This document shows positions 13,326-38,792 of a stretch of 38,792 bases of DNA, piece after piece. Within the stretch, counting starts at the first letter, position 1. The number at the start of each line of letters is the position of its first letter. The position numbers were made by a program, and so were the translations under genes. The stretch is from Chrysochromulina tobinii (taxonomy: Eukaryota), in contig JWZX01003291.1 in assembly GCA_001275005.1 (NCBI GenBank), forward strand, positions 1-38,792, read 5' to 3'. The notes under the pieces were generated by a model that worked only from the letters and a program-made list of their open reading frames with translations, made no database searches and was not told the DNA's origin.

Positions 13326-13630
13326 TCTCACGAAGCGCTCAGGAGGCCGCGCGGACGTCGCGAAAGGCAGGTCCGGCCTCCTGCACACTCGCACAGAGCA
13401 TACGTCCTCACGAACGACCCTGTTAGTGATTAAGAAGCGTGAGACTTCCAGACACTGGGACTCTGACACGTTTGTCACAATAAAAGTCGAGATATCTCAG
13501 CCTGTGGGAGAGTCGACACCACTGTGTACCCGTATTTGGTGGAAATATTTTCTTGGTTTTCGAAAAGTGAGCGCATGCTCACTCAAAACATACCATGCAA
13601 AGAGCGCACAATACTGTTGTATGGCATGAC

Positions 13631-14300
13631 CTACAGGAGCGAGCGAGCGACCAGTCCTAGATAACAAATTATAACTCGCATGCGCGTTTCGCATGCAGAC
13701 ACTCTCGGTGCGCGCGGCGGCTGCTGCGCACGCCCCGGCAATGCCAGCTCACACGGATAATAGCGCCACGCCATCTGCACCTGCTTGTCCCACCTGTCAG
13801 GCACCAGGATGACCCACTGCTCGCCTGCCACCTCATCGGATCTGCTTCCCATGTCCAGAGCAGCGACGAGCGCGCTCCAGTTGCGGTGCGTCTTGGAGTG
13901 CAGCATCGCGTACAGCGTCGTGAGCTCGAGCTCAGAACGCTCGCCGCGACGTAGTCCATCAAAATGGCTCGTTCATCAAAATGCTCGGCTCGGACTGAAC
14001 CCATAGCCAGACAGCCATGTTGTGCATTTTGCTTTTCACAAACTCATCGACGCTGCTCATGTACGACTTGGGGTTCGCGGGGTCGAGCTCGGGAGTGCAC
14101 CCGTAGCTCGCGTGGCCGCGGTTCGAGATGGTCTCGACCTTATCGGGGCCGATCCAAACGCGGCTCGAGGCCTGGCGATGGACGTACATGAGGTCCATTA
14201 CGGCCTCGGCGAGGAGATGCGGCGGGAGGACCGTGGCGGCGACGGGAGCAAAGCGCTCGACGTGAGTGTCCTCGAGACTGTGACACAGAGGAACTGCAGA
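13631..14300 (-). pseudogene. Possible frameshifted gene or TE-gene remnant of unknown family
   Basis: Protein-like text continues across three successive minus frames (ORFs 13959-14393, 13669-14004, 13631-13906) and is flanked by AT-richer DNA; no family recognised. Confidence 0.3.
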
Positions 14301-14846
14301 GAACTGCAAAACGAATGAGGTTGACATTCTCGCGCGCTCTGCTACTCGTCCAGGACTCGGACTCGTCTCGGTCGGGACGTGCTCGGTTTTCACATGTTTT
14401 CAGACGGCTTTCCTTTCGCGCATCAAACTGTGTTTTCTGCAAAAAATTAGAAGGAAAGAAGCGTGGTGGTTATTCATCCTGGCGAGCTCCTGAAAGCTAA
14501 AGAGGCTCGCATTAATCGAATAGGCGAGTGCGCTGTTGCCTGATCGTAATTGCTAATTCGTACACGCCGGGGCGGAGCCAAATACAGACCGGTCTACACG
14601 AGCCGGCCGGCTCGGCGGAGGCAACGGCGGTGGTCGGTGTCGTCGCACGTCGGGCGCCGAATTCCCTACAAATCTACGGAACGGTACTCAGCCTAGCTTA
14701 CGTAAGCACTTTTATCGTATTCCCACACTCAGAGGCGTCCGACTCGCCACGCAGGTGGCGGGGTGGCGCGATCCCGTGCACGCGCGACGCCACAACGCCA
14801 CATGTGCCTGAGTGACATCGACGTCCCCCAGTGCTCCCGCTGGCCG

Positions 14847-16010: not shown

Positions 16011-16251
16011 GGCCCGCCTACCCTTGTTTCGACGCGTGAACGAGCAAGCGGTCAGTGCGGCCCCTCGGAAAAATGAATGTAATGGGGCCCCGCACGGAAG
16101 CCTACCAAGGAGGAAGCGTTGTGTGAATGTGTCCAGTGTCCGCCAATTTGTGAAGCGTGCGGTGCGACGTCAACGTGAACGAGATCATATTGATGTTTGA
16201 TCTTGGGGGTCCTCCTTTGAGCTTTGTGACTAAAGACAGTTCCTCACCGTC

Positions 16252-16861
16252 TCAGTGTGATGGAGCGCTTCGCGAAGACGCAGCCGCTGACGGCTCCTCT
16301 CGCTCCTCCTCGAGCGGTGCGAAGCGCTCGGAAGGGCGCGCGAGCTCGACCGAGTGGACGTCGTTGGTGAGGCGACGCGGCAGTCCAATGAGCCCCAAGA
16401 GCGCGAGTGAGCCGATGCCAACACCGAGTCCCACAAAGACGAGAAGGACGCCCGAGGGGGAGGAGGTAGCTGCGGGGCGTGTCGAGAGCGCTATGGCAAG
16501 CAAGGGCGCAGCCAGCGCCGGCCCCAGCATCTTCCCTATGCCTTCTGTGAACGCGACGATGCCGTTGAGAGCGCCAGAGCGACTAGGGTCGCGCGCACAC
16601 AGCACGTTGCTCATCGAGACGAGGGACGTGCCGCCAAGGAGCATCGCGGACGACTGGACGGCGTACACGGCCGCTGCGGCCGCTGCCTGCCAGTACCGTT
16701 CATCTGCTCCGGAAGGAACCCCAAGCACCGTGCTGCCTGAACTGTCTGTAACGTCCGTGCCTCTGGTGCCTGTGTCACTCGCGTTCGCGCCGAACGCTGC
16801 CTCTACGGAAGCGGTGGCGGTGGCGGCGACGGTGGCGGCGGCGGTGGCGGCGGCGGTGGCT

Positions 16862-16895
<34 letters not shown>

Positions 16896-17928
16896 TGCTA
16901 CTGCCTTCATCTGAGATGAGCGGGAACAAGAGCATGAATGCGCCTCCGAGCGCGCAGCCTAGGATGAGGCTGCAGTAGAGGCCCAGGCGCCGCACAAGAG
17001 CGCCCATCACCGACACCGTGAAGAGGAATTGGAGGAACGACGACACAGCGAGCATCGAGCCCACCTCCTCCTCGACCAGAGCAAGCCCTCCTGCTCGTGC
17101 CGTGGCGATGGCCCACAGCGGCACGACGTCAAAGGCGGCAAACATGGCCATACCGTGCCCACTGCGCAAGAACATCACCAGCGGGAACGGGTGTGTGCAT
17201 AATGCACCGCGCAGCGGCTTCTGCTGCTGCCTCGTCGGCATACGCGTGGCAGACTGCTCCATGTAAGTGCCATCCTCGCTGCTGCCATCGACCGCTCCTT
17301 TTCGCGCCGGGACCGTCTCTGGTAGCCACGCATACGTGACCGCCACCGCAACGATGCCGAGCCCAAAGCCGACCAGCGAGGGCGCGAGCGCCGGGAAGCG
17401 CGCGCCGAGCACGCCATAAGTCCATCCAGCGATCGCAGGTCCAAGTGTCGCCGTCACAGAGCCTACGGAGATGATGTACGAGAAGACCTGCGTTTGGTAT
17501 GCCTCGCCTGCCACCTCCAAGGTGCACATGCCCATGAGCGAGACCCAGCCATTGCACATGCCCAGCAGGATGAGGCGCACGCCGATGGCCACGTAGATAT
17601 TGGTGGCGAAGCCGAAGGCGAGGTTGCCCAGTGCCACTGCGGCCATGCTTGCAATCATCGCCGGGCGCCGGCCAATGCGATCGGCAGCGTAGCCCCAGCT
17701 AATGGATGTGAACAGGCGACCTACGAGCACAGCCGTTGGCAGCAGACCCGCCACGTAGCCCGAACGGTCCCTATCTGGAGCCCAGCCGCAGTCCACCGCC
17801 AAGAAGCCGGCGTATGAGAAGATGGAGCAGAGCGAGTAGAAATGTGCGCTGTTGCAGACACTCAGGGCGATGACGGGTTTCCAACCCAGTATTGGGCCCG
17901 ACTCAGAATCCTTCACTTTCCGTATCAT
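16252..17928 (-). CDS. Major facilitator superfamily transporter (ZIFL/DHA1-like)
   Basis: Motif A WGYAADRIGRRP, GPAIAG, WLPET, about 12 hydrophobic segments, and a poly-Ala insertion in the C-terminal half. Confidence 0.88.
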
Positions 17929-18555
17929 CCCTGCTTCACCCTCGGTGGATCGGAGAAAGCGCCCGCATGCGTCGGGTTACTTGCCAAGTTTTTGCCTGCC
18001 CCACTCCTGGCTCCTTATGGAGCAGAAGTGACGAAATTCACAGGTGGGGCGTTCGGGGGAATTCAAAAGCCCCACCAGGGTAGCACCCGCGGGGCTGCAT
18101 TGAGCCAGTATAGAACAACTTGGCAACCTTCTGCTTGTCGAAACCGCGGCTTTTAAGCACGATGAAGGGTGGTTCTCGCGCGCGCTCTCGTGTGAAATTG
18201 AAGCTGCAGTCTCCGCGGGCCGCTGGGCTTGCACCGGACATGGGCGGCCACCCGTACATAGTCATAGAACAATGAACATGCGAATCACGCTTCAACTACA
18301 TGATACATGTGACGTACATCATCTCGTCGCGGAATGGACCGACAGATCCCACAACGCACTCGCTACGCTCCGATCTTCCCACACGGCTGACTGACAGTTG
18401 TCACGGTACGCACCTCGCTCCGCCGCTCGGCCGTCGGCTCGGCACGGTCGCGCCGCTACATAGAGTACGAACAACCGCGCTGCCGGCCACCTCTGACCCT
18501 CATCGGACCCCACGGCACTCCCATAAGGTGTATGCCCCTACCGAGAGCGCCCCAC

Positions 18556-25091: not shown

Positions 25092-25497
25092 TCACTGCTG
25101 CATGGGCCGCGCGCCTGCGGCGGTCGGCAGGAGGCCGGCAAGCGTAGTTGGCGGCGGCCCTGAGCTCTCAGAAGTAGCCAACTCCATCCGGAGCTGCCGG
25201 GTGAAGTTCTCATCCTCCTCGTCATCCTCCCACCCGTCCTGCCACATTGTGGGGTCCTCGACCTCCTCCGATATCTTGGACCAATCCTGCTGCTCAAATT
25301 CCTCGAAATCGTCGTCTTCCTGCGCGCGCGGGCGAACGAGGTGCGCACGGATTAGCCTCCGAGCCAGGCGGGCGGCGCTCTGACGCAGCTATTTCAGGGG
25401 GGCTGGGCCGGGGGTTTACCTCAAGCACGTCGACAATCTCCTCTGGCTTGCCCGAAGCAGCCGCCGGCGCGGCGGGCGCGGGAGCAGCAGACGACAT
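25092..25497 (-). CDS. SEM1: 26S proteasome lid / TREX-2 subunit SEM1/DSS1, 2 exons (25497-25420, 25319-25092), 101 aa
   Basis: Splicing out GT-AG intron 25419-25320 gives VLE/EDDDFEEFEQQDW...MWQDGWEDDEEDENFTRQLRMEL, the DSS1/SEM1 signature; not present as such in the ORF track. Confidence 0.9.
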
Positions 25498-25525
25498 GTC
25501 CGAGTGCACACGTCTCAAGGCATTC

Positions 25526-25553
25526 AGTCAAGTCAAGTCAAGTCAAGTCAAGT
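25526..25553. repeat. (AGTCA)5 microsatellite at the host/retroelement junction
   Basis: AGTCA x5 plus AGT, directly before CAAAAATG (25560). Confidence 0.95.
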
Positions 25554-25559
25554 TCAAAA

Positions 25560-28500
25560 ATGGCGCCTTCGGCGCCGCCGCCTTTGGGGCGCACCACGGG
25601 CGCGAGATATCGGGTGGGCGCGCCGCGGCGCAAATGGCTGGGACTTGCAGCCCCGTTCTCGGGCATTATCCACATCCACTTCTTTTTCCAGGGCGCGACC
25701 TCCCAAGCTACCAACTTCGGGCATTTCCCTTTTCGTACAGTACAGTGCAATGCTGCATCCGGGCCCGTCGACAATCGGGGCGGTGTCGGTGCTGCGCGAG
25801 GGCTGGAATGGTCGCCGGGAACCCCATCTATCGGGGGCAACTGCCGGCGTTTCTTCACGCGCGCGCGTGGACCCCCTACCTCTTCTTTTACGCCCTTTTG
25901 GGCTAGACAAGGACCCGTCAGCTACTTCGAGCCGGTCTGGGGGGCCAAATTTCATGATCGGGGGCGCGCTGGTGGAGTGGCTCGATGGACGATGGTGACG
26001 GCTGCGGTGGGCAGTTCTTCGTTCTGCTCGAGGAGTGCGCGCTGTGCTCCAGCAACGACTCATGGTCTGGCAGTGGCACGGCTGCAGCAGGAGCTCCACT
26101 TCCTGACCAACAACGAGGCAAGGAACGCGACGGGCCGCGCGACGCGGCGGGGCTCATCGATGCTGAGCATGCCAGCCGCGCTGGAGGCCCAGGCGGGCGA
26201 TCAATCGCGCCGCGGAGCACTCGCGAGCCTTCTTACTATGACGAGTTTGACCCCCTTTCGGGTCAGACAAGAGATCGGTTTTTCTTTTTGGACCGACTTC
26301 AAGAAGATCGGCGATCGGGCGCTGCGCGCATGGATGGCGCAGCGCGACGAGCGATGCGGCTCGCTGTGCGGCACGGCGATCGCGGGCTGCCGACGACGGA
26401 ATGCGAGTGGCAGCGAGCCGCGGCGGCTGCCGCAGCAGCCGCGACGCTCGAAGAAGAGCTCGATGACGAGCGCGTGCGCTACTTTGAGGGCGATGCGGCC
26501 GACTCGGAGCGTGAGCGCGATGAGCACGGCGCGTATCTTGACGAGCTGCATCGAGCCGCGTGTCTGCGGCGCACTTCTGGGTCCTTCTTCAAGCATCAAG
26601 TCGGATCGGGGCACGCCGCCACGACTGCCGAAGGGCTGCGCGACGCTGCTGCCGCAGTTTATCAATGCCGTCGGTCTGGCTGCCACACGCTCGTCGACGC
26701 CGGCAGGGCGCGCGCAGCGGCCCGTAAACGACCGAACGGCTCCTTCTGCGAAGGCGACGGATGCGCCGGGCCGCGCTGCGCCACTCGCTGGAGACCCGAT
26801 CGATTCGTGCCGAGGCAATGTGCGATGGCGTACAATCTCTTTCATGGCAGGCGGCGCTTGGCTGATTGGCCCGCCCGTGTGGGCGGTGGCTCTGGCACGC
26901 GACGCTCCAGGGCTTCCGGCGCGCGAGCTGCGCTTCTGGCTCTCGCCTGGCTGCAAGAGCTCGGGCTCTGCAGTTTCGAAGGTCCTCCTACGTCCTCCTC
27001 CTCGGCGCCTTGACGCGCCGCTCGCGGGTGGGATGGGGGGATATCGGATCGGGTCCTCTGGTCGCGCTCCATGGCATGCCCCCGAGGGAAACCTCCGCGG
27101 GGCCTCTGTCGGAGGTCGGACTATGCGACTCATGGTTCGCCCTCACCACACCGCGGGGCCGCCTCTCTTGGCTGCCGCCACTGACCTTCCTCTTCTTCTC
27201 CATCGACACCTTGATGCGCCGCTCGCGGGTGGGATGGGGGGACATCGGATCGGGTCCTCTGGTCGCGCTCCATGGCATGCCCCCGAGGGAAACCTCCGCG
27301 GGGCCTCTGTCGGAGGCCGGACTATGCGACTCATGGTTCGCCCTCACCACACCGCGAGGCCGCCTCTCCTGGTTGCCTCCGCACTTCTCCTTTCTCTTCT
27401 TTTCCTGTTCGGCGCGGGGGTGGCAGCCTGTCGTCGTTCGGAGCCGGACGTCACCCCTGACGAGCTGCACAAGGAGCTCCGGAGCATTGCGCAACTGCTG
27501 CGCCTGCACCACGAGAAGCTCTTGCTCATGGCCAAAACGGCGGCCGCGCCTGGAGCTTTCCAGGCATCGCGCGACGCCATCAAGGTGCTCGGCGGCAGGG
27601 AGGCGAAGCTCATCGCGTTACTGGCTGCCATGCCGTCCACGCGCGAGGTCCATGAAATTCGTGCGAACGTCGTGCAGAATTTTTACGCCGATCGCGACAA
27701 GCTCTCGTCGGCGATCCACGACGAAGTGACGAAATGCAGGACGCTCGAGGCCGAGCGCAGGCAGCCGATCTCTCACATCGGCATCGCCATCATCTGCTTG
27801 TCGCATCTTGCCGGTCTCGTTGGCGTCGCATGGTCTGCGCCATCTCCTCCGTCCTCTTCTCCTGTTCTACCTTCTTCTTCTGCATACTCTTCTTCTTACT
27901 ATTATTCTTCTTCCTCCTCATCTTCCCCTTCTTCCTCGGCTTCTTTCTCCGATTCTACTCGTGCTGACCCTCCTTCTTCCGTCGCGCTCATTGCGCCTAC
28001 TCTCGCGGGTACTTTTGCGTACACTCTTCCCACACCGCCCTCATCGCCGCCGCCCTCGCCGCCTGGATCTTCTTCTTCTTCTTCATCTTGTTCTCTCACT
28101 TCTTCGCCGGCGCGCCGTGTACGTCGCGTGCGGTGGCCTTCAGGCTCGCCACCGCCATCGCCGCCTCCATCGCCGACGGGAGCCTCGGATTCCTCGGCGG
28201 CGCCTTCGCCTCCTCCTTCGAGGACATCTTCGCGGCCGTCTTCACCAAAGGCACTGACTGCGGCCTCGCCTGCGCGCGAAGCGGCTCACGCGCGACGGCT
28301 GTCCTTGCAACCTGCACGATACGTGCCAGCCGCCTTTGGACGGCGGAGTATTCTCGCGACGGCGGCCGCAGCGGCGCAAAGCAGCACGATCGTCACGAAC
28401 GGCGAGCCGCCTGCAACCTTCGTGGCGTCGGCAGTCTGGACTGGCGCCATCGATGGCAAGGTCTTCAAGCGCGGCGCCTTTGGCGTGGGCTACTATGACG

Positions 28501-31500
28501 ACGGGCCGATCGCTGCGTGTGGCGAAGCGATCGTTGGACAGCGCGTGGGAACGGCACTATCCTTCGGCGCGGTCTCGATCAGCATGCGACCGTGCCAACA
28601 GGACTGCGACTGCGCGCGGTGCATACCGCGGCACGCGGATGCCAGACGGGCGCGCTTTGCCGGAGAGGCGGCGCTTCCGCCGCCGCCCCTGCCGACGCAT
28701 CGCATTACGGTGGCTGGCGGCAACGTCAACAAGACTGACGTCGTCGAGAAGACGCTCGCCTTCGCAATCCGGCAGCTTGACGGTGCCGACAAGCTGACGA
28801 GGCCGCGCGATCTTCTCAACGCGGGGCTCTTGAAGGCGCTATCGGCCCTAGGTGTTCATGACGGCGCTCTCGACGATTACGACGCGCTGCTAGCGCTGTT
28901 TCATGAGCGACAGGCCGTCAATCGCGCCGCTGTCGGCTGCGCAGCGGCAGTGGTTGTGGCAGCGGCTGCTGCTACGTCACGTCAGGCTAACGGTGCTCAC
29001 AGCGCGGCTGCCGCCGCGAGCGAGCGGTCGCGCGATGATCCCGAGGTGGTGTCAGTTTCGGCCGTCGCGGGCCTGAAGCGCAAGGTGGCTGCGGCGGTGC
29101 GCACGCTCGGTGAGTGTACCGCGAGCAGTGCACGGGCTGCTGCCGTCGCGATCGGCGGGCTTCATGCTGGGTCGGCCTTCGACAAGGCTGCCCAAGAGCG
29201 CGACGCGGCGGCGGCGGTCGCGAGCATGGTGGCCGCTGCGGTGACGGCCGAGGACCGCACTCGAAGCGCAGCCGCAGCGCGGGTCGGGTCATCGCACGAG
29301 ACGCAAGCCGAGATCGGGATGCGCGTCTACTGCAAGCTCGAGCTGCTCGAAGGGCAGCTACCGCACGAGGCCTGGCGGCTGGCTGTCATCCGGGGCCTCT
29401 TCTTCGTTGGTGCAGGCGAGGTCGAGGCTTTCGTCGAGTTCATCGTCATCGGCGCTCGTTGGTCGCTCGACGACTATCCGTATGTTGCCGAATGGAGCGC
29501 TGACGCGCTCAAAACGGCTGCGGCGAGAGAGCGGGATCGGCCGGCGCTCAAACAGCACAACGTCACTCTCGGACGAATGCTCGCCTTTGTTGGGCTCAAG
29601 GCGGTCGTGCCGCCGCCCCGGCCCGCGCTTGGCGTTGCGCTTAACCGATTACCCAGCGACACTATCGCCGCGGTTGGCGCCACCGGCGATGCAGGAAATG
29701 CCGTAACGCTGATCGTCTACGACGGGCGCGCCGCGCGCGCGACCGCGCTGCATCGCGTCCTTCAGGCCTACGCGTACGCGGCGGCCGGTTTCGCCACAGC
29801 GTGCCTGCCGACCATGTGGGAATGGCGCACTGCCCTTTGCGGCTCTTGCTCAGCGGCGCAATGGCTCGTGGCGCATTTTTTGCACTCCATCGGCTGGTCT
29901 GACGTTGTCGACGGCCTGGCAGCCTCAGCGGCACTCGCACGTTTCAAACGTGTGCTGCCCTGGCAGATGATTGCCGACGCGCTCGCGGATCTTTGCGAGA
30001 CTGACGTGTGCGTTTCGGTGCAAGCGCCGATGACACTCGGGCAGATCATCGGGTGCACGGGCAAGGCGCTCGGCGATGAGCTGCTGCGCGAAGCGATGAA
30101 GCTGCCACTGCAGCTCGAGCAGCTGCGTTCCGATGGTACGATCTCTGCGGCCGTGCTCGACTGGTGGCTGCGTGACGCGGCCTCTTTCATCGTCAAGTCC
30201 AAGTACAAGTTCGCCGAGGTGCTCGCCGCGCGCGCGGCCAAGCAGCAGCCCGCTCTACCGCGGCTGCCTCCGGGCGCATGTTGGATGGCCAGACAGGCTA
30301 AGGCGTACAAGATGGAGGTGGCGCTCAGCGACGCCAAATTCCTGCTCGAGCGGCTGCGGCGTGAGGCCAAGACGAAGGCGGAGGGCATCGTGCCTACATC
30401 GGCTACGGCGCCGCGCGCAGTGATCGAGGTGCAGCGAAGGCGCGCTTGCCTCGTTTGGAACCCCGGCGGCGTGCACGTCATCGACGCGAGGGCCGATCGC
30501 CGAGTGGGCGACCGTGAGCGTGCTATGCAAGGCAAACGGAGGGCGAGCGGCGCAGGAGCGCAGGCCGACGTGCGCGATCGCGAGCTGGCTGCGGCGATCG
30601 AGCGCGAGGACGAGGAGGACGGAGGCGGCGACGTGGGGCGGGGTTCAGCGCTCCGCTTCAAGGGCTGTGACGCGCTCGAGGCGATCATTGACCAAGTGAA
30701 GTCCAAGGACGCGCACCTGCTCGTGTTGTCCGAGACGCACTTGCACGGCCGCGCGGTCGATGACGTGGCCGATTACCTCGGCACGCGACTGGGCTGGCAG
30801 GATCTCGCCAAGGGGCGCAGTGGCGGCGCGCCTGAATATGTGCCGTGCGTCGTGCAGGCGCCGGCGGCGCGCGGTGAATGGGCGGGCGTACTGGTCGCTT
30901 TCGATCCGACAGTCTTCAAAAAGCTTGACGTGCAGATAGTCGTACCTGGACGCGTGCTGCAGATCGAGTTCCGAATGGTCGACGACTCTACGAATTTGAC
31001 GCTTTTCGCATGCTACATGCCTCAAGCCAATCTCCCACGCGAAGTGCACGACAAGGCTTGGGGCAAGCTCGAGGAGGCGCTGCTCACAGTGTGCGGCGCG
31101 TACGTGATTGCGGGCGACTTGAACGCGGAGACGGCGACTCGGCTGCTGAAGGCGCACAAGATCAACCTGAGCAAGGGCGGCGTGGTGAAGAGGCCGGGCG
31201 AGACCTATTTGTTCAAGCTCATGCACGGCACAAGCTTCCTCGAATTTGATCAGCCCACGAGGGTCGGGCGCGAGGAGTACACGCACCTGCACGTGGTGAG
31301 CGCGGCCTCGAAGGACGCGGAGGGCAATCTCGTCGAGGCCGTCACGAGCAAGCACGTCATCGACCACGTTCTCGAGGGCGGCTGCGATGGACGCGTCGGA
31401 GGCGGCGAGACCTTCACGGTCAAGGTCGGATCGGAGCCAAACAAGCAGTATCACAGGGCGCTGGGCTTTGCGATCATTACGACCGACACCGAGGAGATTG

Positions 31501-34500
31501 TCACGAGCGCGAATCGCAAACCGAAGCTCAGCAAGATGCCGAGGGTGTCGAGCAAGCCCAAGACGATGAGCAAGACGGGCAGCGACAAGCGCGACGGGGC
31601 CAAGCTGAAGAAGCGCCTGGTCACGATGGCCAACGCGCTGCCGGATCGTTTTGAGGATGGCACGGGCGGGCTCGTCGACGATGCCGAGTTGGGCGTGGAC
31701 GACTCTGACCTCGAGGAGGTGTTAGAGGGCGACGGTGATGCTGACGAGCTCATTGGTTGGGACGCGTACAAGGAAAGGGCGGCGAGCGCGAGCGAGTCGG
31801 CCATGAAGGACTGGGTGGCGGGGCGCGAGGGCGCGTGCGCCGAGGCGATGCAGCAGCTCGTTGGCCAAGGGCGGCCCATTGACGAGCGCAGCAGAGCGCT
31901 GGCGCGCGACGAGGCGGCGGCGCGCTACGCGGCGACGAACGGCACGTGCGTCGAGCATCTGATGCAGGCGTGCATGCTTGTGGCGCGCGAAGTCATCGCG
32001 GCGCCGCAGGCGGCCAAAGGGCGCAAGCAGTCGGCCGGCGAAGTGTTGCGGCGGAAGCTGGACAAGTACCTCGCGATCGAGAAGGAGGTCGAGGATCTGA
32101 AGATCACCGACATCGTCTTCGGCTACTGCGGCAAGATCAAGGGTCGCTGGAGGACGCGTGAGAGCGCGCTGACGCCCGAGCTCAAGCAGTTTTTCCTCCG
32201 CGACGCAGCGCCGCACGCGCCAGGCGAACGCAAGGCGCGCGAGCTTGTGCTCATACGGAGACGCGTCGACGAGTGCGTCAGGGAGGTCGAAGAGCATCGG
32301 CTGACTACTCGCGTCGACTATGTCAATGAGCAACTCACGATCTTGGCTGCCAGAGAGCTGGGGTACGCGCGAGCCGCTGCTGAGGTGATTCGAGCTGAGC
32401 GACGTGGGCTGATGTCCTCCAAGGACAAGGGCCCGGGCGGGACGCTGGTAGCTCTCGAAGACGAGGCGACCGGGCTGCTGCTCACTGGCGTGGCCCGCGA
32501 TAAGGCCGTCGCCGCCAAGGTGCGCTCGGGCAACACGCCAAATCTCGTCTGTCTCGAATCGGCTGGTCACCTTATGGACCTGTGCCGTATCGAGCGCGGC
32601 GAGCGCAGAGGAGGCAGCACGGCGCAGGGCAGCGGCGCGGCGTTTCAGGTCGTCGAGGACGCCGAGTGCCGGCTGGGTCGGCAGCCGCGCATCGCCCGAA
32701 ACCGAGAGCGCGTTGAGGCCTGTGTGCGGCCGCCGGCTGGCGACTTCGTCGTCGTTGGGAACGCGAGGTTTCCTGACGAGGCGCACGACGGCAGGGTACG
32801 GTACGACGGCAGCAGGAAGGGCATTCTGGGCAGTCCATTTCGGATGGGTCTCGACGGGCGCGACGAGAACTTGCGAGATCTCTCGTGCGAGTGCTATCGA
32901 GAGTGGCTTGAGACGGGCGGTGATGCGTACGCGATCGCGGTGGCCAAGTGTTTCCCAATCGAGTGCGTCGCGCCGGGTCACGGGCGGATCTGCAGCGCCG
33001 ACATCGAGGCCGAGATCGAGTCGCTCGTCGAGATCGTCGTCGAGCTCGACAAGCGCCTCGTGCTCGAGTGCGGGTGCGCGCCGAAGCGGTGCCATCTCGC
33101 GTGCATCGCGGAAAAGTGCAACACGCTGATCCGTGCGAAGCGTGCCTTGAGATCCAAGCAGGCTGCCGATGCGCGCGATGCCGGCGGCGCGGCGGCTTGC
33201 GAGCAGTGTGGCGAGGGCGTCGTGCAGGAGGGCGGAGGCGCGGCCGATGCTGATGCGCTATTGGCGAAGGTCGTCGCTGATGCTGTCGCTCAAAAGGGCG
33301 ATGTGTCAGGCTTTGTCGAGGCGGGCACGGCGGCGCAGCATCACGTCACGCGTGACGAGGAGAGCAGCGGTCAGCGGGCCGACGAGGCGACGCACGAGGG
33401 ATCGCGTGGCGCTGGGCACGCCACGGAGGCCGATTCAGCAAGGGAGCGCGCTCGCGAGCGCGACGCGTGGCATGAGGAACTGCGCAGCGTCATCGGCGCC
33501 ACGGGTGCTTCTGACGGCGATAAGGCGTCTGCCTTCGACTATTGGACCGGCGAGTACCAGCTCGAGTTCAACGAGAGCGGCGACCGGTGCACCGACCAGC
33601 GAGCACGGGCGCTGCTGCAACGGCTGCTCACGCCCGAGCGCGTCCTCGAGTTGACCAAGCTGGTCAAAGAGAAGCTCGCCACCGGGTTGGACGAGTTCAA
33701 CTTGGTGCTCGTCAAGCAGGGCGGGCTTGAGCTCGCCAAGCTCTTCGCTGACGCGTGCGTGGAGGAGGTGGCGGTCTTTTCATTCCCGACGAGCTGGACT
33801 ACCTGGCACGCGACGTTGATCCCGAAGCCGGGCAAAGATCGTTGCAAGCTCAGCGGCTGGAGGGAGATTTGGATCCAGTCGCATCTGTGGAAGCTCGTGG
33901 TCGGCGCCATCCTGCCCGAGTGCGCTGAGGTTTTTGCGCGCACGCGACCATGGTGCAACGCCGGCTTCGAGGCCGGGCGAGGCTGTCCCGAGCAGTCGGC
34001 GGCACTGCGCGCGCGGCTTGAGCTGCACATGCGGCTGCGGCAGCCACTACACGTCTACTTTCAGGACTATTCCGTCTTTTTTCCGTCGATCTCGAGGCAG
34101 CTTGTCGCCTTCATCCTGCATGAGCTGGGCGTGAGCACAGTCTCGATGCAGATTCTTCGAGAAGTCCAAGATCAAGTGATGGGAGCGTTCAAGACGGCGG
34201 GCGGTCCCACTGAGCTGGCCCCGATGCTGAGAGGCGAGCCCATCGGCGGCGTCGAATCGCCGTTGTTCTCGCTGCCTGTGGCGGCGCTCGTACAGCGCGC
34301 ACTCGAGACCTACGTGCCGGGCAGCCCACTGCCGGATCGGCGCGAGCTGCGTGTCGCTGCGCTGCAGCTGTGGTATGCCGACGACGGCGCACTTGCTGAC
34401 GCCGTCGAGGGCATCATCCAGACGGCGGTGGACATCATGATCTTGCTGTCGGAGGAGATCCTGGGGCTCAAGGTCGGGCACGACACGGTCGAGGCGTCCA

Positions 34501-37500
34501 AGTCGGCGTCGCTGTCGTGGACATGGGACAAGTCGCGCAACGAGTTCGTGCGTGGCAACGGAAACAAGTTCAAGGTGCCGTTGGGTAGCTCACGAGAGGA
34601 CATCGAGCTCGCGCGTGCAATCACCTATCGATACCTGGGCATTGACTTCGACCCTGAGCTCGACGTGACCAAAGTGGAGGAGTCGTATCGCGCGCGGGCC
34701 AGCGCAATCATCACCATGATCAACAATCTTGGCGGCGGGTACTGCGACCAGCTCGCGCAGGCGGTGAATACGGTCGTACAGGGCGTTTTCATCTTCCCGG
34801 CGAGGACGATTCCTTTCACGGAGGTCGCGTCGAAGGCGCTCGACATCAAGGCGACTAAGCTGCTCTTCAACCACGGCAATCGCGCCAGGCACTCCAAGAT
34901 CGTGGGTGCTTACGTCGCAGGCAAGTATGGAGGCCTCGGGCTGCGACCGGGGCGGTCGACGATGGCGGCCGGGCTGCTCGACGAGATGGCGCGCGCCTGG
35001 GGTGGCCGACACGGCGAGCCCGCGCGTGCAGTTCGGCTCTCCTTGCAGACGGTCTTCGTGGCGAGCCTGGGCTGGGACGGGCCGTCGGCGGAGGCGCCGA
35101 CCGTCTTCGACTTCATCATCAACGAGCGATGGCTACCTTGTTTCAGGAGCGAGGTCCCGATGGAGGGCGTAGCGCTGCATATGGCACGGCTGGGACTGCG
35201 GTGGCGCGGCACGGGCGTTGACGAGTGCCGGCTGGACAAGCAACGCGCGATCGAGCGAGGAGTGTTGCCAGGTCGCAAAGTGCGCCTCATCGAGCTGCTC
35301 GGCGTGACGCCCTCGCTACGCCTGCACGGGCTGGGCATCAGCAGCCTCGATGAGCTACACGCTGGTGGCGGCGAGCTGCTCAGCGCTGAACGGATCGAGG
35401 TCATCTATGCGAGGCCCGGTTGGGCGTGGAGCGACGTGGACAGAGCGCATGTCCGACGGCTGCTGCGTGAAGTCGCCGGCAACGATCGCGCAAAGGTCGC
35501 GCTCGACGACTGGAGAGAGCACGGCGCGCCGATGGGAGGCGAGATCGCGCTTATTGAGCGGATCAACGTGGGGAGACGGAGTGCGCTGCGCATGTTCTCT
35601 CGTATCGTGGGGATTATGTGGTGCAAGGACGCAGAGGGCGGCCGGCCCGACGAGCGCTCCTATGAGGTGATCTTCTGCGGCGCTCGGCTGCGCGACGCAG
35701 TATGGCTCACCCGGGCGCAAGTGCTGGAGGGCGCGGCGAGGCGCGACGCCGCCACGACTGTGTGCAGCCCTGGCGAGCCCATCGAGATCGATGAGGTGAC
35801 CGCGTGGATGGACGAGGCTGACGCATCGAGGTGGGAGCCGAGCACTTTCAACCGCTTCCTGACGCGGCTTCGAGGGCCGCAAGGCGCGGCCGAGCTGCTC
35901 GCCAAGGCCAGTCGAGCGGCAGGGCTCAATCGCGACGCGGCGCAAGCTCGTGTCGAGCTCACTGACGTCCTGCTGCTGGACTACGCGGCGCTGAGAGCTA
36001 AAGGCGTGAGCGCCAAGGAGGTCAATCTTCGCGAGGATCGGATCGCTGATGAGGCGAGGAGGCACGAAGTCGAGGAGTACTCGACTGCGTGGACGATCAC
36101 GTGCACGGGCGCGCTGCGACAGGCTCACACAGTCGAGGAGCGTATGGGCGCCGTTCGGGCGATGCCCGTACCGACTTACGCCGACGGTGGCGCGGTGCCT
36201 GAGTCTGACGTGCAGGTCGCTTTCGACGGGGTGGCATGGAAGGCTGCCAAGGATAACGGCAGTCTTTGGAGCGGGTGGCGCGGTCCCAATCACAAGGTCG
36301 CTGAATTCGAACGCGCGCCCGCGGCGTTCGCGTCAGCTGTCACGCGCAGTTTCTCGCGAGCGTATGAGGCCGAACGTTCGCCAGAGGGCCTGACGTGCGT
36401 GAACGCGTACGGCGGGCTGCTGCAGATTCGTATTGCGCGCGATGAGGCTGCGCTCATCGCGAGCGATCTCAATCTGGCGCTGCTGCGCGAGATCGGCAAG
36501 ATCGAGATGGTCTGCAAGCAGCGCGGCCGGGGCGGCTTCAAGCTCGTGGCGGCTACTGATGGCGCTTACTGCAAGGCGAAGGCGCTCAGTGCGCGCGACG
36601 CGCTGCGGTACGAGCTGGCAAGCGATGCTGAGCGCGTGCAGCGCAAATTGCGAGCGCCTTACGAGCCGCCGCAGGTGGCTAGCGGCGTCTTTTACGGGCT
36701 GCAGGCTCCTGGGAGCGCCGTGCCGGTGGCTGAGGGCAGGCGGCTGCCGGCCGAGTTCGATAACAATCAGGCGGAGCTCGACGGCCTCATACTCGCGCTT
36801 CGTCGTCACGTGGCCTTGCTGACCGGCATCTCGGTCCACGAGGTCTTGCGGCGGCTGCTGCACGACTGCGAGTACGCCATCGGCCCGGCCGCGAGCGCTG
36901 ACGAGGGTGAGGACGAGCTTGATGCTATGTCGGCCCGCGATGGCGAGGCCGACACGAGCGGCCCGAGAGAGGCGCGCGATCTGCTCATCATTATCGACAG
37001 CGAGATCATCGCCAGCTTCTTTCAGCGGGCGTGGCGCAGGGGCGACATCAAGTGGCTGCGCGGCGAGACGTACGGCCTGCGCATGGAGGAGGCGATCCTG
37101 TTACGGATCTGGCTCAGGACGCTCGGCGCCGAGGTCCACACTCTACGGTTGAGCTCTCATTGCGGCTTCATCCCGAACGTCTGGGCTGACGCGATCGCCA
37201 ATGCCGCGCGGCTTTTGGACTGCGACGGCGAGCCGCCTCTCGTCGTGCGTCGCCCCTTGGCCTTTTTGTGTAAGGTCGGCGGCGACGGCAAGTCGTGGCG
37301 TGGACCGGGCGCGTCGCTACCGCGGAGCGCGTGCGGGATGGCGAGCTCATCAGCGGAGCTCGACGCGCGGACTTCTAAGGAGATTCGCGAGCTGAGCGAC
37401 ACTTGCGCGCTGCACAAGCTCGTCGAGAACGACGTCAAGGTGTTTCGCGCCTCACGGCAGGGTCGCGAGGCGCGCGACGAGATCGACGGGATCGTCTTTC

Positions 37501-38792
37501 TGCCCAGGTGCTCGCGGCACGCCCAACTCGGCGAGCAGCTTTTGGACAGCGACGCGAGCAAGCAGGCCAAGGGTCTTTTCGAGCAAGCGAGACACGAGCT
37601 GCGCAGCGTCGCCGACGGCGAGCTATCGGCTGAGCTCATCGAGGGACGGTTGTACGCTGCCCCGTTCTTTGACTACGTCGGGGTGGGGCTCGACGTGACC
37701 AAGGGCATGCAGATCTTCGACCGGCGCATTCAGACCCCGCTCTCTACGCAGAGGGGAGGCGGTTTCGGCGGGCCGCTCGAGCTCACGCGTGTGGGCATGC
37801 GGCACTTACTGCGCAACTTCACGCAGAGCGCGTTGCCCGAGCTGGGCGATGGCATCGACGACAGCGCGAGAGTCGCGGGCGAGACTCTGCCGCTGTGCAG
37901 GTGCCCGGTTTGTCGTCGGGAGTGCAGGTGCGACCTTTTTCATTTCTTCGAGTGCCCGCACGGGCTGAGCGAGGCAGCGAGGGTGGCTTGCTGCAGCGCG
38001 CTCGAGCAGCACGCGTCTATGATAGGTGCGCCGCGCGCCGGCGACGGCGAGGGCGAGGGCGACTTGCATTTGGAGCTGGCCTGGGCGAGGGTGGCCTTGC
38101 TTGCCGAGCGGCTGCCGGGTGAGCTTGGGCGGTACCGCAGGTATTTGGCCGCCAAGGCGCTCGCAGGCGCCTTTGCGTTGCCAGCGGCGTCTTCAGTGAA
38201 GGAGGCTGTCATGGACAGCCTTCGCGCCGGCGTGAGCGTGAGCACGGCAGAGGCCGATGAGGCTGACGACGGCGACGGCGACAACGGCGATACGCAGGAC
38301 GAGTGGGAGGAGGCGCGCCCGCCGGGCGAGTTCGACTACGAGCAGTGCGCAGGGGCGCGGCGCGATCTGCTCAAATGGTACGTCGGGAAGGCTATCGCGC
38401 TCAACACGGTTATCATCGACCACTTGCGCATCGAGTACAGCGCGTGGGTCGAATCGTTGCGGCGTGGGCATGCAGGGCTGCGTGGCGCATACGGAAGCGA
38501 CTACATGAGTCATTTCCTTGGCGGCAGGGAGCGAGTCTGCGATGAGCAGCTGCGTGGCACCTTCTTCCCGACCGACGGCAGCGTGGCCGTGCCAATGAGC
38601 CTCGCCGACTTCAAGGTTGGGCACAAGAGCGACGAGATGCGGCCGGGCCGCTTCGTGCGCATCGTGGGCGGCGAGACGATCGCGTGCACGCACGGCACCG
38701 CAGCGAGCAGGTACGAGGCGCAGGCTAGCAGGCGCGCGAGCGCCAAGGCGGCGGCGGATCTCGCAAGGGAGGAGGGCAGCTTCAGGTACGCG
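25560..38792 (+). CDS. Retrotransposon polyprotein, at least 4411 aa from the first ATG (at least 3823 aa from ATG 27324), truncated by the window
   Basis: Manual translation of frame +3 has no stop from 25356 to the window end, and the ORF track lists no frame +3 ORF here, which is consistent. True start uncertain (25560, 27033, 27123 or 27324). Confidence 0.88.
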   Translation, partial: MAPSAPPPLGRTTGARYRVGAPRRKWLGLAAPFSGIIHIHFFFQGATSQATNFGHFPFRTVQCNAASGPVDNRGGVGAARGLEWSPGTPSIGGNCRRFFTRARGPPTSSFTPFWARQGPVSYFEPVWGAKFHDRGRAGGVARWTMVTAAVGSSSFCSRSARCAPATTHGLAVARLQQELHFLTNNEARNATGRATRRGSSMLSMPAALEAQAGDQSRRGALASLLTMTSLTPFRVRQEIGFSFWTDFKKIGDRALRAWMAQRDERCGSLCGTAIAGCRRRNASGSEPRRLPQQPRRSKKSSMTSACATLRAMRPTRSVSAMSTARILTSCIEPRVCGALLGPSSSIKSDRGTPPRLPKGCATLLPQFINAVGLAATRSSTPAGRAQRPVNDRTAPSAKATDAPGRAAPLAGDPIDSCRGNVRWRTISFMAGGAWLIGPPVWAVALARDAPGLPARELRFWLSPGCKSSGSAVSKVLLRPPPRRLDAPLAGGMGGYRIGSSGRAPWHAPEGNLRGASVGGRTMRLMVRPHHTAGPPLLAAATDLPLLLHRHLDAPLAGGMGGHRIGSSGRAPWHAPEGNLRGASVGGRTMRLMVRPHHTARPPLLVASALLLSLLFLFGAGVAACRRSEPDVTPDELHKELRSIAQLLRLHHEKLLLMAKTAAAPGAFQASRDAIKVLGGREAKLIALLAAMPSTREVHEIRANVVQNFYADRDKLSSAIHDEVTKCRTLEAERRQPISHIGIAIICLSHLAGLVGVAWSAPSPPSSSPVLPSSSAYSSSYYYSSSSSSSPSSSASFSDSTRADPPSSVALIAPTLAGTFAYTLPTPPSSPPPSPPGSSSSSSSCSLTSSPARRVRRVRWPSGSPPPSPPPSPTGASDSSAAPSPPPSRTSSRPSSPKALTAASPAREAAHARRLSLQPARYVPAAFGRRSILATAAAAAQSSTIVTNGEPPATFVASAVWTGAIDGKVFKRGAFGVGYYDDGPIAACGEAIVGQRVGTALSFGAVSISMRPCQQDCDCARCIPRHADARRARFAGEAALPPPPLPTHRITVAGGNVNKTDVVEKTLAFAIRQLDGADKLTRPRDLLNAGLLKALSALGVHDGALDDYDALLALFHERQAVNRAAVGCAAAVVVAAAAATSRQANGAHSAAAAASERSRDDPEVVSVSAVAGLKRKVAAAVRTLGECTASSARAAAVAIGGLHAGSAFDKAAQERDAAAAVASMVAAAVTAEDRTRSAAAARVGSSHETQAEIGMRVYCKLELLEGQLPHEAWRLAVIRGLFFVGAGEVEAFVEFIVIGARWSLDDYPYVAEWSADALKTAAARERDRPALKQHNVTLGRMLAFVGLKAVVPPPRPALGVALNRLPSDTIAAVGATGDAGNAVTLIVYDGRAARATALHRVLQAYAYAAAGFATACLPTMWEWRTALCGSCSAAQWLVAHFLHSIGWSDVVDGLAASAALARFKRVLPWQMIADALADLCETDVCVSVQAPMTLGQIIGCTGKALGDELLREAMKLPLQLEQLRSDGTISAAVLDWWLRDAASFIVKSKYKFAEVLAARAAKQQPALPRLPPGACWMARQAKAYKMEVALSDAKFLLERLRREAKTKAEGIVPTSATAPRAVIEVQRRRACLVWNPGGVHVIDARADRRVGDRERAMQGKRRASGAGAQADVRDRELAAAIEREDEEDGGGDVGRGSALRFKGCDALEAIIDQVKSKDAHLLVLSETHLHGRAVDDVADYLGTRLGWQDLAKGRSGGAPEYVPCVVQAPAARGEWAGVLVAFDPTVFKKLDVQIVVPGRVLQIEFRMVDDSTNLTLFACYMPQANLPREVHDKAWGKLEEALLTVCGAYVIAGDLNAETATRLLKAHKINLSKGGVVKRPGETYLFKLMHGTSFLEFDQPTRVGREEYTHLHVVSAASKDAEGNLVEAVTSKHVIDHVLEGGCDGRVGGGETFTVKVGSEPNKQYHRALGFAIITTDTEEIVTSANRKPKLSKMPRVSSKPKTMSKTGSDKRDGAKLKKRLVTMANALPDRFEDGTGGLVDDAELGVDDSDLEEVLEGDGDADELIGWDAYKERAASASESAMKDWVAGREGACAEAMQQLVGQGRPIDERSRALARDEAAARYAATNGTCVEHLMQACMLVAREVIAAPQAAKGRKQSAGEVLRRKLDKYLAIEKEVEDLKITDIVFGYCGKIKGRWRTRESALTPELKQFFLRDAAPHAPGERKARELVLIRRRVDECVREVEEHRLTTRVDYVNEQLTILAARELGYARAAAEVIRAERRGLMSSKDKGPGGTLVALEDEATGLLLTGVARDKAVAAKVRSGNTPNLVCLESAGHLMDLCRIERGERRGGSTAQGSGAAFQVVEDAECRLGRQPRIARNRERVEACVRPPAGDFVVVGNARFPDEAHDGRVRYDGSRKGILGSPFRMGLDGRDENLRDLSCECYREWLETGGDAYAIAVAKCFPIECVAPGHGRICSADIEAEIESLVEIVVELDKRLVLECGCAPKRCHLACIAEKCNTLIRAKRALRSKQAADARDAGGAAACEQCGEGVVQEGGGAADADALLAKVVADAVAQKGDVSGFVEAGTAAQHHVTRDEESSGQRADEATHEGSRGAGHATEADSARERARERDAWHEELRSVIGATGASDGDKASAFDYWTGEYQLEFNESGDRCTDQRARALLQRLLTPERVLELTKLVKEKLATGLDEFNLVLVKQGGLELAKLFADACVEEVAVFSFPTSWTTWHATLIPKPGKDRCKLSGWREIWIQSHLWKLVVGAILPECAEVFARTRPWCNAGFEAGRGCPEQSAALRARLELHMRLRQPLHVYFQDYSVFFPSISRQLVAFILHELGVSTVSMQILREVQDQVMGAFKTAGGPTELAPMLRGEPIGGVESPLFSLPVAALVQRALETYVPGSPLPDRRELRVAALQLWYADDGALADAVEGIIQTAVDIMILLSEEILGLKVGHDTVEASKSASLSWTWDKSRNEFVRGNGNKFKVPLGSSREDIELARAITYRYLGIDFDPELDVTKVEESYRARASAIITMINNLGGGYCDQLAQAVNTVVQGVFIFPARTIPFTEVASKALDIKATKLLFNHGNRARHSKIVGAYVAGKYGGLGLRPGRSTMAAGLLDEMARAWGGRHGEPARAVRLSLQTVFVASLGWDGPSAEAPTVFDFIINERWLPCFRSEVPMEGVALHMARLGLRWRGTGVDECRLDKQRAIERGVLPGRKVRLIELLGVTPSLRLHGLGISSLDELHAGGGELLSAERIEVIYARPGWAWSDVDRAHVRRLLREVAGNDRAKVALDDWREHGAPMGGEIALIERINVGRRSALRMFSRIVGIMWCKDAEGGRPDERSYEVIFCGARLRDAVWLTRAQVLEGAARRDAATTVCSPGEPIEIDEVTAWMDEADASRWEPSTFNRFLTRLRGPQGAAELLAKASRAAGLNRDAAQARVELTDVLLLDYAALRAKGVSAKEVNLREDRIADEARRHEVEEYSTAWTITCTGALRQAHTVEERMGAVRAMPVPTYADGGAVPESDVQVAFDGVAWKAAKDNGSLWSGWRGPNHKVAEFERAPAAFASAVTRSFSRAYEAERSPEGLTCVNAYGGLLQIRIARDEAALIASDLNLALLREIGKIEMVCKQRGRGGFKLVAATDGAYCKAKALSARDALRYELASDAERVQRKLRAPYEPPQVASGVFYGLQAPGSAVPVAEGRRLPAEFDNNQAELDGLILALRRHVALLTGISVHEVLRRLLHDCEYAIGPAASADEGEDELDAMSARDGEADTSGPREARDLLIIIDSEIIASFFQRAWRRGDIKWLRGETYGLRMEEAILLRIWLRTLGAEVHTLRLSSHCGFIPNVWADAIANAARLLDCDGEPPLVVRRPLAFLCKVGGDGKSWRGPGASLPRSACGMASSSAELDARTSKEIRELSDTCALHKLVENDVKVFRASRQGREARDEIDGIVFLPRCSRHAQLGEQLLDSDASKQAKGLFEQARHELRSVADGELSAELIEGRLYAAPFFDYVGVGLDVTKGMQIFDRRIQTPLSTQRGGGFGGPLELTRVGMRHLLRNFTQSALPELGDGIDDSARVAGETLPLCRCPVCRRECRCDLFHFFECPHGLSEAARVACCSALEQHASMIGAPRAGDGEGEGDLHLELAWARVALLAERLPGELGRYRRYLAAKALAGAFALPAASSVKEAVMDSLRAGVSVSTAEADEADDGDGDNGDTQDEWEEARPPGEFDYEQCAGARRDLLKWYVGKAIALNTVIIDHLRIEYSAWVESLRRGHAGLRGAYGSDYMSHFLGGRERVCDEQLRGTFFPTDGSVAVPMSLADFKVGHKSDEMRPGRFVRIVGGETIACTHGTAASRYEAQASRRASAKAAADLAREEGSFRYA
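25985..27013 (+). CDS. Candidate ORF1 of the element (342 aa, acidic middle, Cys-rich C-terminal part), overlapping frame +3
   Basis: Frame +2 ORF with protein-like acidic stretches; its TGA lies at the start of the first 201-bp repeat; no gag knuckle or RRM recognised. Confidence 0.4.
   Translation: MDDGDGCGGQFFVLLEECALCSSNDSWSGSGTAAAGAPLPDQQRGKERDGPRDAAGLIDAEHASRAGGPGGRSIAPRSTREPSYYDEFDPLSGQTRDRFFFLDRLQEDRRSGAARMDGAARRAMRLAVRHGDRGLPTTECEWQRAAAAAAAAATLEEELDDERVRYFEGDAADSERERDEHGAYLDELHRAACLRRTSGSFFKHQVGSGHAATTAEGLRDAAAAVYQCRRSGCHTLVDAGRARAAARKRPNGSFCEGDGCAGPRCATRWRPDRFVPRQCAMAYNLFHGRRRLADWPARVGGGSGTRRSRASGARAALLALAWLQELGLCSFEGPPTSSSSAP
27008..27377 (+). repeat. Two near-identical 169-bp cores at 201-bp spacing (27008-27176, 27209-27377)
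   Basis: Only six differences, all transitions; the period is 67 codons and preserves frame. Confidence 0.95.
30444..31475 (+). other. APE/EEP endonuclease domain
   Basis: LVWNPGG (30456), LVLSETH (E at 30732), AGVLVA, CYMP, IAGDLNA (31113), VIDHVL, QYH (H at 31452). Confidence 0.9.
32742..33125 (+). other. DUF4326-like domain inside the polyprotein
   Basis: VVVGN...ILGSPFRMG...DENLRDLSCECYREWL...IESL...LVLECGCAPKRCHLACIA matches the recalled DUF4326 pattern LGNPF...R...Y..WL...LxCxCxPxxCH. Confidence 0.75.
33600..34945 (+). other. Non-LTR type reverse transcriptase domain
   Basis: LATGLDE (domain 0), FPTSW, LIPKPGKD, NAGFEAGRGC (2a), QDYSVFFPSI, GEPIGGVESPLF, WYADD (34374), GLKV, YRYLG, GGLG. 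Confidence 0.93.
36540..37205 (+). other. Ribonuclease H1-type domain
   Basis: ATDGA (D 36558), SGVFYG, NNQAEL (E 36774), IIDSE (D 36996), SSHCG..PNVWAD (H 37158, D 37188): the complete DEDHD set. Confidence 0.9.
37902..37955 (+). other. C-terminal CCHC zinc knuckle
   Basis: CPVCRRECRCDLFHFFEC (C-x2-C-x9-H-x3-C), at the position typical for LINE ORF2. Confidence 0.75.

Follow-up and report, generated by a model that had tools for sequence, protein, structure and literature searches.

Why does a giant LINE of the haptophyte Chrysochromulina tobinii carry a DUF4326 domain between its endonuclease and its reverse transcriptase (RT), where did this domain come from, and what could it do for the element? 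These questions are raised by contig JWZX01003291.1, whose whole stretch of 38,792 nt was analyzed and is referred to here as the window. An earlier note on this DNA had placed a DUF4326-like domain at 32742-33125 and read it as a captured viral module. A profile search of the plus-strand translation bears out the domain call: the 128-aa piece matched DUF4326 (PF14216; Pfam) with an E value of 2.1e-6 and 28.7 bits, above the gathering cut-off of 25; only when the whole 4479-aa open reading frame (ORF) is scanned does the score fall under it. The match spans residues 25-124 of the piece. DUF4326 clusters accounted for 29 of the 30 ESM Atlas matches to the domain (best score 0.93), and PHROG 464 also matched it (E = 2.3e-5). 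The GNPF-like motif of the family is present as GSPF at 32829, and the CxCxPxxCH motif as CGCAPKRCH at 33069; all three motifs quoted in the earlier note were found in frame 1 of this interval.

The domain lies inside one stop-free frame of 4479 codons (25356-38792), which runs off the window, and this single frame upholds its proposed in-frame location between the APE endonuclease and the RT. An ORF on the opposite strand overlaps the domain; the homology is wholly on the plus-strand frame. Gly/Ala/acidic spacers had been described on both sides of the domain. This description holds for the downstream flank, which is variable, but not for the upstream one, whose 60 residues are conserved (45-92% identity). 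The coordinates are collected in Table 1.

Table 1. Features of the LINE in the window and of its DUF4326 domain.
Feature	Position	Strand	Evidence
5' end: (CAAGT)n cap, reverse complement of the family's 3' tail (ACTTG)n	25526..25553	+	L001, L003 and L014 start matching here; flanks differ
Giant LINE ORF, first ATG right after the cap, runs off the window	25560..38792	+	4761 aa in L001
APE-type (EEP) endonuclease with SETH, GDLN and IDH motifs	30500..31500	+	PF03372 just under cut-off; motif positions
Conserved endonuclease-to-RT linker, runs into DUF4326 without a spacer	31800..32741	+	35-92% identity to three relatives; dN/dS 0.13-0.60
DUF4326 (PF14216), long eukaryote-type form, predicted RapZ-C/rhodanese-phosphatase-like fold	32742..33125	+	Pfam, ESM Atlas, model, fold search, tree
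CxCxPxRCH motif, predicted P-loop (C-x5-R) between last strand and last helix	33069..33095	+	Model secondary structure, conservation counts
Variable Gly/Ala/acidic spacer, DUF4326 to RT	33160..33470	+	33-52% identity, indels
Non-LTR reverse transcriptase, YADD at 34374	33600..34600	+	Weak phmmer and profile matches; dN/dS 0.12-0.18
RNase H-like domain, catalytic motifs only (TDG, AE, IDSE, SHxG, NxxAD)	36540..37200	+	Motifs conserved in 4/4 aligned copies
CCHC-type zinc knuckle	37902..37955	+	C-x2-C, H and C conserved in 4/4

The surrounding element is an APE-RT-RNase H-CCHC LINE with a single ORF, full length in copy L001, and its domains follow in the order endonuclease, linker, DUF4326, spacer, RT, RNase H-like motifs and CCHC finger. 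The endonuclease matched Exo_endo_phos (PF03372) with an E value of 6.5e-5 and 23.2 bits, just below the Pfam cut-off of 24.5. The RT gave no Pfam RVT match; it was detected by weak phmmer matches to R2 and L1 ORF2p in the PDB (E = 0.002-0.04) and by profile matches to L1 ORF2p from residue 442 of the latter (E = 9e-7). No profile match was obtained for the RNase H region in Pfam or in the PDB sequence search, and it is called by motif alone, from TDG, AE, IDSE, SHxG and NxxAD, which we take to mark an RNase H-like domain. The alignment of the C-terminal part had no PDB sequence match. A C. tobinii protein of the same 90% cluster, annotated as reverse transcriptase, is 100% identical over 3104 aa, and L013, a 33-44% identical element, has the same layout over 4502 aa up to a frameshift. 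Ankyrin repeats were observed in L013, and SET-, GNAT- and chromo-like stretches were seen by eye in the P0090 element, for which a PDB sequence search gave no match.

The element encodes an APE endonuclease and, further downstream in the same ORF, a non-LTR RT, which marks it as an APE-type non-LTR retrotransposon, and the usual hallmarks of this class were observed: dispersed copies, 5' truncations, a repeat tail and a target-site duplication. The 3' tails in the family are (ACTTG)n, (AACTTG)n or (AACTT)n, and a 9-base target-site duplication surrounds L005/L006; none was found around L007. In two DNA runs the element body was covered at a depth of about 110-135, and seven 5'-truncation joints were recovered in both runs at a depth of 38-50. 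As far as read depth, which is not a copy number, can indicate, there would be a small number of long, nearly identical copies in addition to truncated ones. RNA runs contained scattered short pieces of the element only (shares 0.07-0.10) and do not demonstrate its expression. The family is unusual in its ORF of ~4700 aa, in an RT that Pfam misses and in 5' junctions that carry the 3' tail in inverted form as a cap.

Giant LINEs with accessory cargo have been described in other algae. According to the available text of PMC5029228, the cryptophyte Dualen-1_GCr encodes 5287 aa with SET, C48 peptidase, APE, RT, RNase H, CCHC and restriction-like endonuclease domains. The Dualen/RandI LINEs presented there share with the LINE of the window a giant single ORF in algae, an APE endonuclease, RT, RNase H, a CCHC finger and accessory cargo, whereas DUF4326 is not among the Dualen domains listed in that text. 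An RNase H, recognized by motif, and a CCHC finger lie 3' of the RT of the giant ORF in 4/4 copies. Past this finger no conserved PD-(D/E)xK motif of a restriction-like endonuclease was seen; the C-terminal model is unusable (pLDDT 35.6), and its Atlas matches score below 0.9. Compared by description, our element resembles Dualen/RandI in size and layout. The restriction-like endonuclease that defines Dualen was not seen, although it may be present, and the element is not classed as Dualen here.

To the extent covered by the literature examined, in part as partial texts, DUF4326 is not a standard LINE domain, as had been claimed. Its distribution was examined in a homologue search of 1.84 billion representative proteins (E <= 0.001), which returned 44 proteins, the top seven being LINE copies; an earlier search restricted to proteins of at least 2463 aa had given 2 near-copies only. 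In all nine checked LINE protein records with the upstream linker motif (P0003, P0005, P0006, P0008, P0009, P0012, P0066, P0067 and P0075), the Cys motif was found 212-217 residues downstream, and five of these records extend into the RT. The RT alignment led to 20 metagenome loci, of which 14 have a DUF4326 profile match; the six without one comprise two short contigs and a single 5'-truncated insertion represented by four records. Altogether nine LINE lineages, down to ~33% identity, hold DUF4326 at the same place, and their domains form one clade (97/94 in a 51-row tree). DUF4326 is a family trait with a single origin among the LINEs sampled. Neither the Cys motif nor a DUF4326 profile match was found in P0069, P0089 and P0090, three records of a distant giant element whose RT is 24% identical. 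The domain is not known from L1 or R2 either, and its gain in this LINE lineage is the simplest reading, with this one outgroup family and the absence from L1 and R2 as its basis.

A domain inserted in frame by chance and tolerated by the RT linker could be a neutral passenger, and such elements do take up other cargo, as the stretches in L013 and P0090 illustrate. We consider this explanation largely refuted and very improbable. The dN/dS of DUF4326 was 0.09 against L014, 0.31 against L008 and 0.37 against L013, compared with 0.19, 0.26 and 0.43 for the endonuclease and 0.43-0.53 for the spacer 3' of the domain; values against L008 and L013 are rough because dS is near saturation (0.9-1.9). 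Thus, in two of three comparisons the domain lies at or below the endonuclease. It is also kept across all nine lineages, with invariant Cys and His residues next to a drifting spacer. DUF4326 is under purifying selection and is as constrained as the endonuclease.

We next consider the source of the domain. The nearest relatives outside the LINEs are long-form DUF4326 domains fused to AlkB, RNase T-type exonuclease, CCCH fingers, Nudix, GDSL or cytidylyltransferase-like domains. Ten clusters were looked up, and one eukaryote-type relative is an MMETSP record, that is, a transcript; the eukaryotic status of most relatives is deduced from domain fusions and this one record. An MGxDGxDE insert is common to the LINE copies and the eukaryote-type relatives. 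This signature occurs in 41 of 100 domain rows; only two of the LINE rows lack it, and none of the named phages has it. Searched as a DNA pattern, whose exact form would catch 29 of the 100 rows, it had 0 matches in 2.9 million viral contigs (IMG/VR) and a single one in 185,579 prokaryote genomes, located inside a eukaryote-type retroelement (L032).

Two trees of the domain were built. The first, made by a quick method, comprised 95 rows and left out the frameshifted L019 piece along with P0001, P0074, P0067 and P0152. The second comprised 51 chosen rows under LG+G4, with an unsettled bootstrap and no NCLDV or other giant-virus rows; in it, the LINE, eukaryote-type and tyrosine-recombinase (YR) element domains grouped together (34 rows, 89/73), although not with strong support. 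Approximately unbiased (AU) tests rejected a clade of the LINEs with five named phages (p-AU 0.009). A clade of the LINEs with a Nodularia cyanophage and two cyanobacterium-like long forms, P0026 and P0044, was not rejected (p-AU 0.11), nor was a eukaryote-type clade without the LINEs (p-AU 0.36).

The two surviving topologies leave some room for direct transfer of the domain to the LINE from a phage or giant virus, a matter of origin that is separate from function. The Atlas clusters are mostly viral or bacterial, and in BFVD the fold matches are to DUF4326 proteins of phages (best E = 5.6e-5 and 1.1e-4). Such a donor nevertheless seems unlikely to us: the best phage tblastn match to the LINE domain had an E value of 0.7, giant-virus models matched it only at E >= 0.088, and relatives of the LINE RT and of the YR-element domain were both missing from the viral contigs searched, in addition to the missing signature and the rejected phage clade. 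We favor a eukaryote-type gene, captured once, as the likely donor because of the tree grouping, the AU tests, the absence of the signature from the viral contigs searched and the weak phage and giant-virus matches. The captured viral module of the earlier note thus stands as a kept and selected module, while its viral origin is doubtful at best, the nearest relatives being LINE copies and eukaryote-type proteins and the signature count in IMG/VR being zero.

The single prokaryote-genome match, L032, is a 10.2-kb contig in a bacterial-MAG record; the contig is probably eukaryotic and misbinned. It encodes a CCCH-bearing gag-like ORF, then a 1275-aa pol ORF and then a 927-aa YR ORF. In the pol ORF, DUF4326 (E = 4.8e-9) comes first, and motifs of RT (YVDD) and RNase H come after it; the RT and RNase H had no Pfam match, the pol region had no PDB sequence match, and both are called from motifs and gene order. 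The 927-aa ORF matched Nudix (E = 2.6e-4, 21.4 bits against a cut-off of 21.1) and, under the cut-off, phage integrase (E = 7e-4). The order gag-like, RT-RNase H, YR is that of Ngaro elements as described in the available part of PMC8547959. In this respect L032, as distinct from the LINE of the window, is like the Ngaro/DIRS elements of that source, from which it differs in that its pol ORF opens with DUF4326 and its YR ORF with a Nudix domain.

The DUF4326 of L032 nests among eukaryote-type rows (97/88 and 95/87), away from the LINE clade, and a clade of the LINEs with the two YR-labelled rows (L032 and P0025/P0146) was rejected (p = 0.005). Because its domain groups with eukaryote-type proteins apart from the LINEs, this tyrosine-recombinase retroelement has taken up DUF4326 independently of the LINE. 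By eye, P0025/P0146 resembled a DIRS-type RNase H region with an embedded DUF4326; its blastp match to the L032 pol covered the DUF only, and it is no more than a putative further case.

Turning to the protein itself, the earlier note had called DUF4326 uncharacterised, which is outdated. In the available text of PMC9503650 the domain is assigned to the rhodanese-phosphatase superfamily and predicted to act on ribose-linked terminal phosphates, and that of PMC7824862 predicts an enzyme bridging NAD+ signalling and DNA modification. No activity for any DUF4326 is reported in the literature examined, as far as the texts available extend. With the DUF4326 domains of phages, NCLDVs and prokaryotes presented in these two sources, the domain of the window shares the R...GNPF motif (GSPF here), the R..xC helix and CxCxPxRCH, and its fold matches phage DUF4326 models. 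In contrast to them, the LINE version is a long form with the MGxDGxDE insert and with a P-loop Arg that is relaxed in the LINE clade, and it is part of a retrotransposon polyprotein, whereas known DUF4326 domains stand alone or are fused to SLOG, Macro or NADAR.

An AlphaFold model of the domain, computed from an 81-row alignment, had a pLDDT of 95. Among 48,161 PDB chains its best match was the C-terminal domain of RapZ (PDB 5o5s, 5o5q; Z 6.8-6.9, rmsd 3.0-3.4, 98-100 residues aligned), followed by a match at Z 4.3 and then by many dual-specificity phosphatases (Z 3-3.8) and tetrapyrrole methyltransferases (Z 3-4). A Z below 8 is moderate and could reflect merely a common arrangement. Foldseek against the PDB returned nothing at E <= 0.001, with RapZ at rank 8. 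The predicted model has a Rossmannoid fold with a Cys loop between strand E110-114 and helix H123-141, as in the rhodanese-phosphatase superfamily; Cys114 (33069) closes the last strand, and Arg120 (33087) completes C-x5-R ahead of the last helix. RapZ likewise has a Cys-bearing loop past its last strand, although it is only 10-12% identical to the LINE domain and is a bacterial sensor of sRNA and GlcN6P; we know of no CxCxPxxCH cluster in RapZ. We therefore predict a RapZ-C/phosphatase-like fold with C-x5-R at the P-loop position. A clade named RapZ-C-DUF488-DUF4326, with a predicted role in DNA-end processing, was reportedly defined by Burroughs and Aravind in 2023. The result of the fold search, which is that of a model, agrees with the rhodanese-phosphatase placement in the accessible portion of PMC9503650.

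Is this predicted site catalytic? The C, C, C and H of the motif are invariant in 14/14 LINE rows, and the copy in the window keeps the full C-x5-R. The P-loop Arg is present in 9 of the 14 LINE rows, corresponding to five of nine lineages, and is otherwise K, Q, M or A; it is found in 25/26 eukaryote-type rows and 48/55 short or prokaryote-type rows, a frequency of ~90% family-wide among rows gathered with a profile that favors Arg. The loss of Arg in four of nine LINE lineages is the main result against a catalytic reading, and a pattern of variable Arg with invariant C/C/C/H suits a metal-binding site or a ligand pocket no less than a catalytic center.

Because of this loss, a binding-only role is a strong rival. 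In such a role the invariant Cys and His would bind metal, and the domain would bind element RNA or a sugar-phosphate, holding the template or timing the RT. In other non-LTR proteins, the endonuclease-RT linker region contacts template RNA, and here DUF4326 precedes the segment that can be aligned with L1 ORF2p from residue 442 onward. The best fold match points the same way, in that the C-terminal domain of RapZ binds an sRNA and a sugar-6-phosphate (PMC7073468, available text), and one phage homologue carries the annotation, and no more than the annotation, 'enzyme with 4Fe-4S center'. Set against a binding module are the full C-x5-R in the window copy and four other lineages and the prevalence of Arg in DUF4326 at large. 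We regard a non-catalytic domain as a real but minority prospect, and catalysis by the LINE domain as somewhat probable.

As the most likely function we propose, at slightly less than even chances, that DUF4326 acts in cis and removes phosphate or phospho-ribose blocks from element RNA, cDNA or nicked target ends. In this proposal, the domain that is now fixed between APE endonuclease and RT would derive from a single capture of a eukaryote-type DUF4326 gene. Its predicted cysteine P-loop would take terminal phosphate or phospho-ribose groups off nicked target DNA or the RNA of the element itself, and the cleaned ends would let reverse transcription be primed and finished. The domain would work in cis, within the ribonucleoprotein, on nucleic-acid ends or on end marks derived from ADP-ribose. 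Action in cis is proposed because the domain sits in a scarce RT polyprotein, which suits it to its own ends and places it badly for draining a soluble pool. The relatives support end processing by their nucleic-acid contexts, namely fusions to AlkB, RNase T-type exonuclease and CCCH fingers, and the long form of the Nodularia phage lies directly 3' of an RNA ligase gene. Against it, the related P0090 element is intact without DUF4326, and APE nicks already leave a 3'-OH.

The domain might instead be a counter-defence enzyme that destroys soluble ADP-ribose-derived host signals or toxins, as proposed for viral DUF4326 in the available texts of PMC9503650 and PMC7824862. L032 pairs DUF4326 with Nudix, a pairing of the kind described for viruses, and other relatives are fused to Nudix, SLOG or a cytidylyltransferase-like domain. 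Within the LINE ORF and the LINE relatives, however, no Macro, NADAR, SLOG or Nudix match was found, and a single copy in a scarce 4700-aa polyprotein would fit action in cis better than the clearing of a pool. We judge counter-defence of this kind improbable for the LINE. A broader possibility, speculative and rather unlikely in our view, is that the LINE family and the Nudix-bearing YR element independently recruited DUF4326 as a built-in enzyme to counter a host that marks the RNA and cDNA ends of retroelements with ADP-ribose or phosphate.

No report of DUF4326 in a retroelement was found in the literature searched, although Burroughs and Aravind 2023 or Repbase may already note the fusion; no relevant literature was found on haptophyte LINE domains, and neither 'retrotransposon' nor 'retroelement' is mentioned in the available text of PMC9503650. 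Enzyme domains captured by retrotransposons are already known, such as SET and a peptidase in Dualen (PMC5029228) and AlkB in Gypsy (PMC9289625), as far as the accessible texts describe them. The AlkB of orchid Ty3/Gypsy is likewise a host-derived enzyme domain fixed in a retroelement polyprotein. It differs from the present case in the domain concerned and in its setting, which here is the endonuclease-RT linker of a LINE and, independently, a YR element.

A DUF4326 that is fixed and selected in an RT polyprotein narrows the likely substrate to the RNA, cDNA or target ends of the retroelement, and the LINE family offers a defined system for testing DUF4326. That a LINE and a YR element acquired it independently points to a pressure common to algal retroelements. 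If the reading of a dual recruitment is true, it would reveal an NAD+/ADP-ribose-based anti-transposon defence in haptophytes. The LINE would then heal both target ends, with each of them primed on the RNA tail of the element, and the inverted tail repeats found at its 5' junctions would be accounted for.

Upstream of the LINE, the window holds ordinary host genes at 7282-17976, encoding a protein kinase, a UDP-galactopyranose mutase, a Rad51-like ATPase and an MFS transporter. Within the LINE ORF, a small block that precedes the endonuclease (29319-29590) is conserved and shared by P0009 and the sister element at L013, and a possible degenerate chromodomain-like stretch lies between RT and RNase H (35640-35730); a Pfam search gave no match for either. 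The N-terminal part of the L013 ORF contains ankyrin repeats (L013:2260-2400, E 1e-7).

A related LINE of 3600 aa (P0090/P0089) lacks DUF4326. By eye, it contains stretches resembling SET, GNAT and chromodomain, the last being a clearer counterpart, at the same position, of the chromodomain-like stretch in the window; the endonuclease was the only Pfam match on the whole protein. DUF4326 also occurs elsewhere: in a Nodularia phage (L022, MK605242.1, 40158-41419), an RNA ligase gene is followed immediately by a long-form DUF4326 gene, and the tyrosine-recombinase (YR) retroelement L032 encodes DUF4326-RT-RNase H in one ORF and Nudix-YR in another. The ends of L032 match each other over 84 bases, and its contig, filed under a bacterial MAG, is probably a misbinned eukaryotic contig.

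Internal inversions, 550-730 bases in length, are present in several LINE copies (L004/L005/L006/L016, L014/L015 and L019), and the joint of the L014-type inversion was also present in sequencing runs X13 and X15. The 5' part of the window ORF contains an in-frame direct duplication of 200 bases at 91% (26995-27405).

At their 5' junctions, both full-length and truncated copies have the 3' tail repeat of the family in reverse-complement form. Among the fetched loci, it was present at six of the seven clear 5' junctions, including that of L013, whose own 3' tail is off its contig; the junction of the insertion recorded as L010/L011/L012/L018 is without it.

Inverted tail repeats at LINE 5' junctions and the separate YR retroelement
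Feature	Location	Type
Inverted tail repeat	window 25526-25553	5' junction
Inverted tail repeat	L003:52-81	5' junction
Inverted tail repeat	L005:3636-3670	5' junction
Inverted tail repeat	L007:7710-7748	5' junction
Inverted tail repeat	L013 about 165-192	5' junction
Inverted tail repeat	L014:2379-2418	5' junction
L032	G001:C129:1-10209	Ngaro/DIRS-like retroelement

In both DNA runs, seven internal LINE positions abut the inverted tail repeat directly. One literature search turned up no use of the term 'inverted microsatellite'. At L005, a 9-base target duplication lies external to both repeats; together with the inverted tail repeats at the 5' junctions, this suggests that the RNA tail of the LINE serves as the priming site for both target 3' ends.
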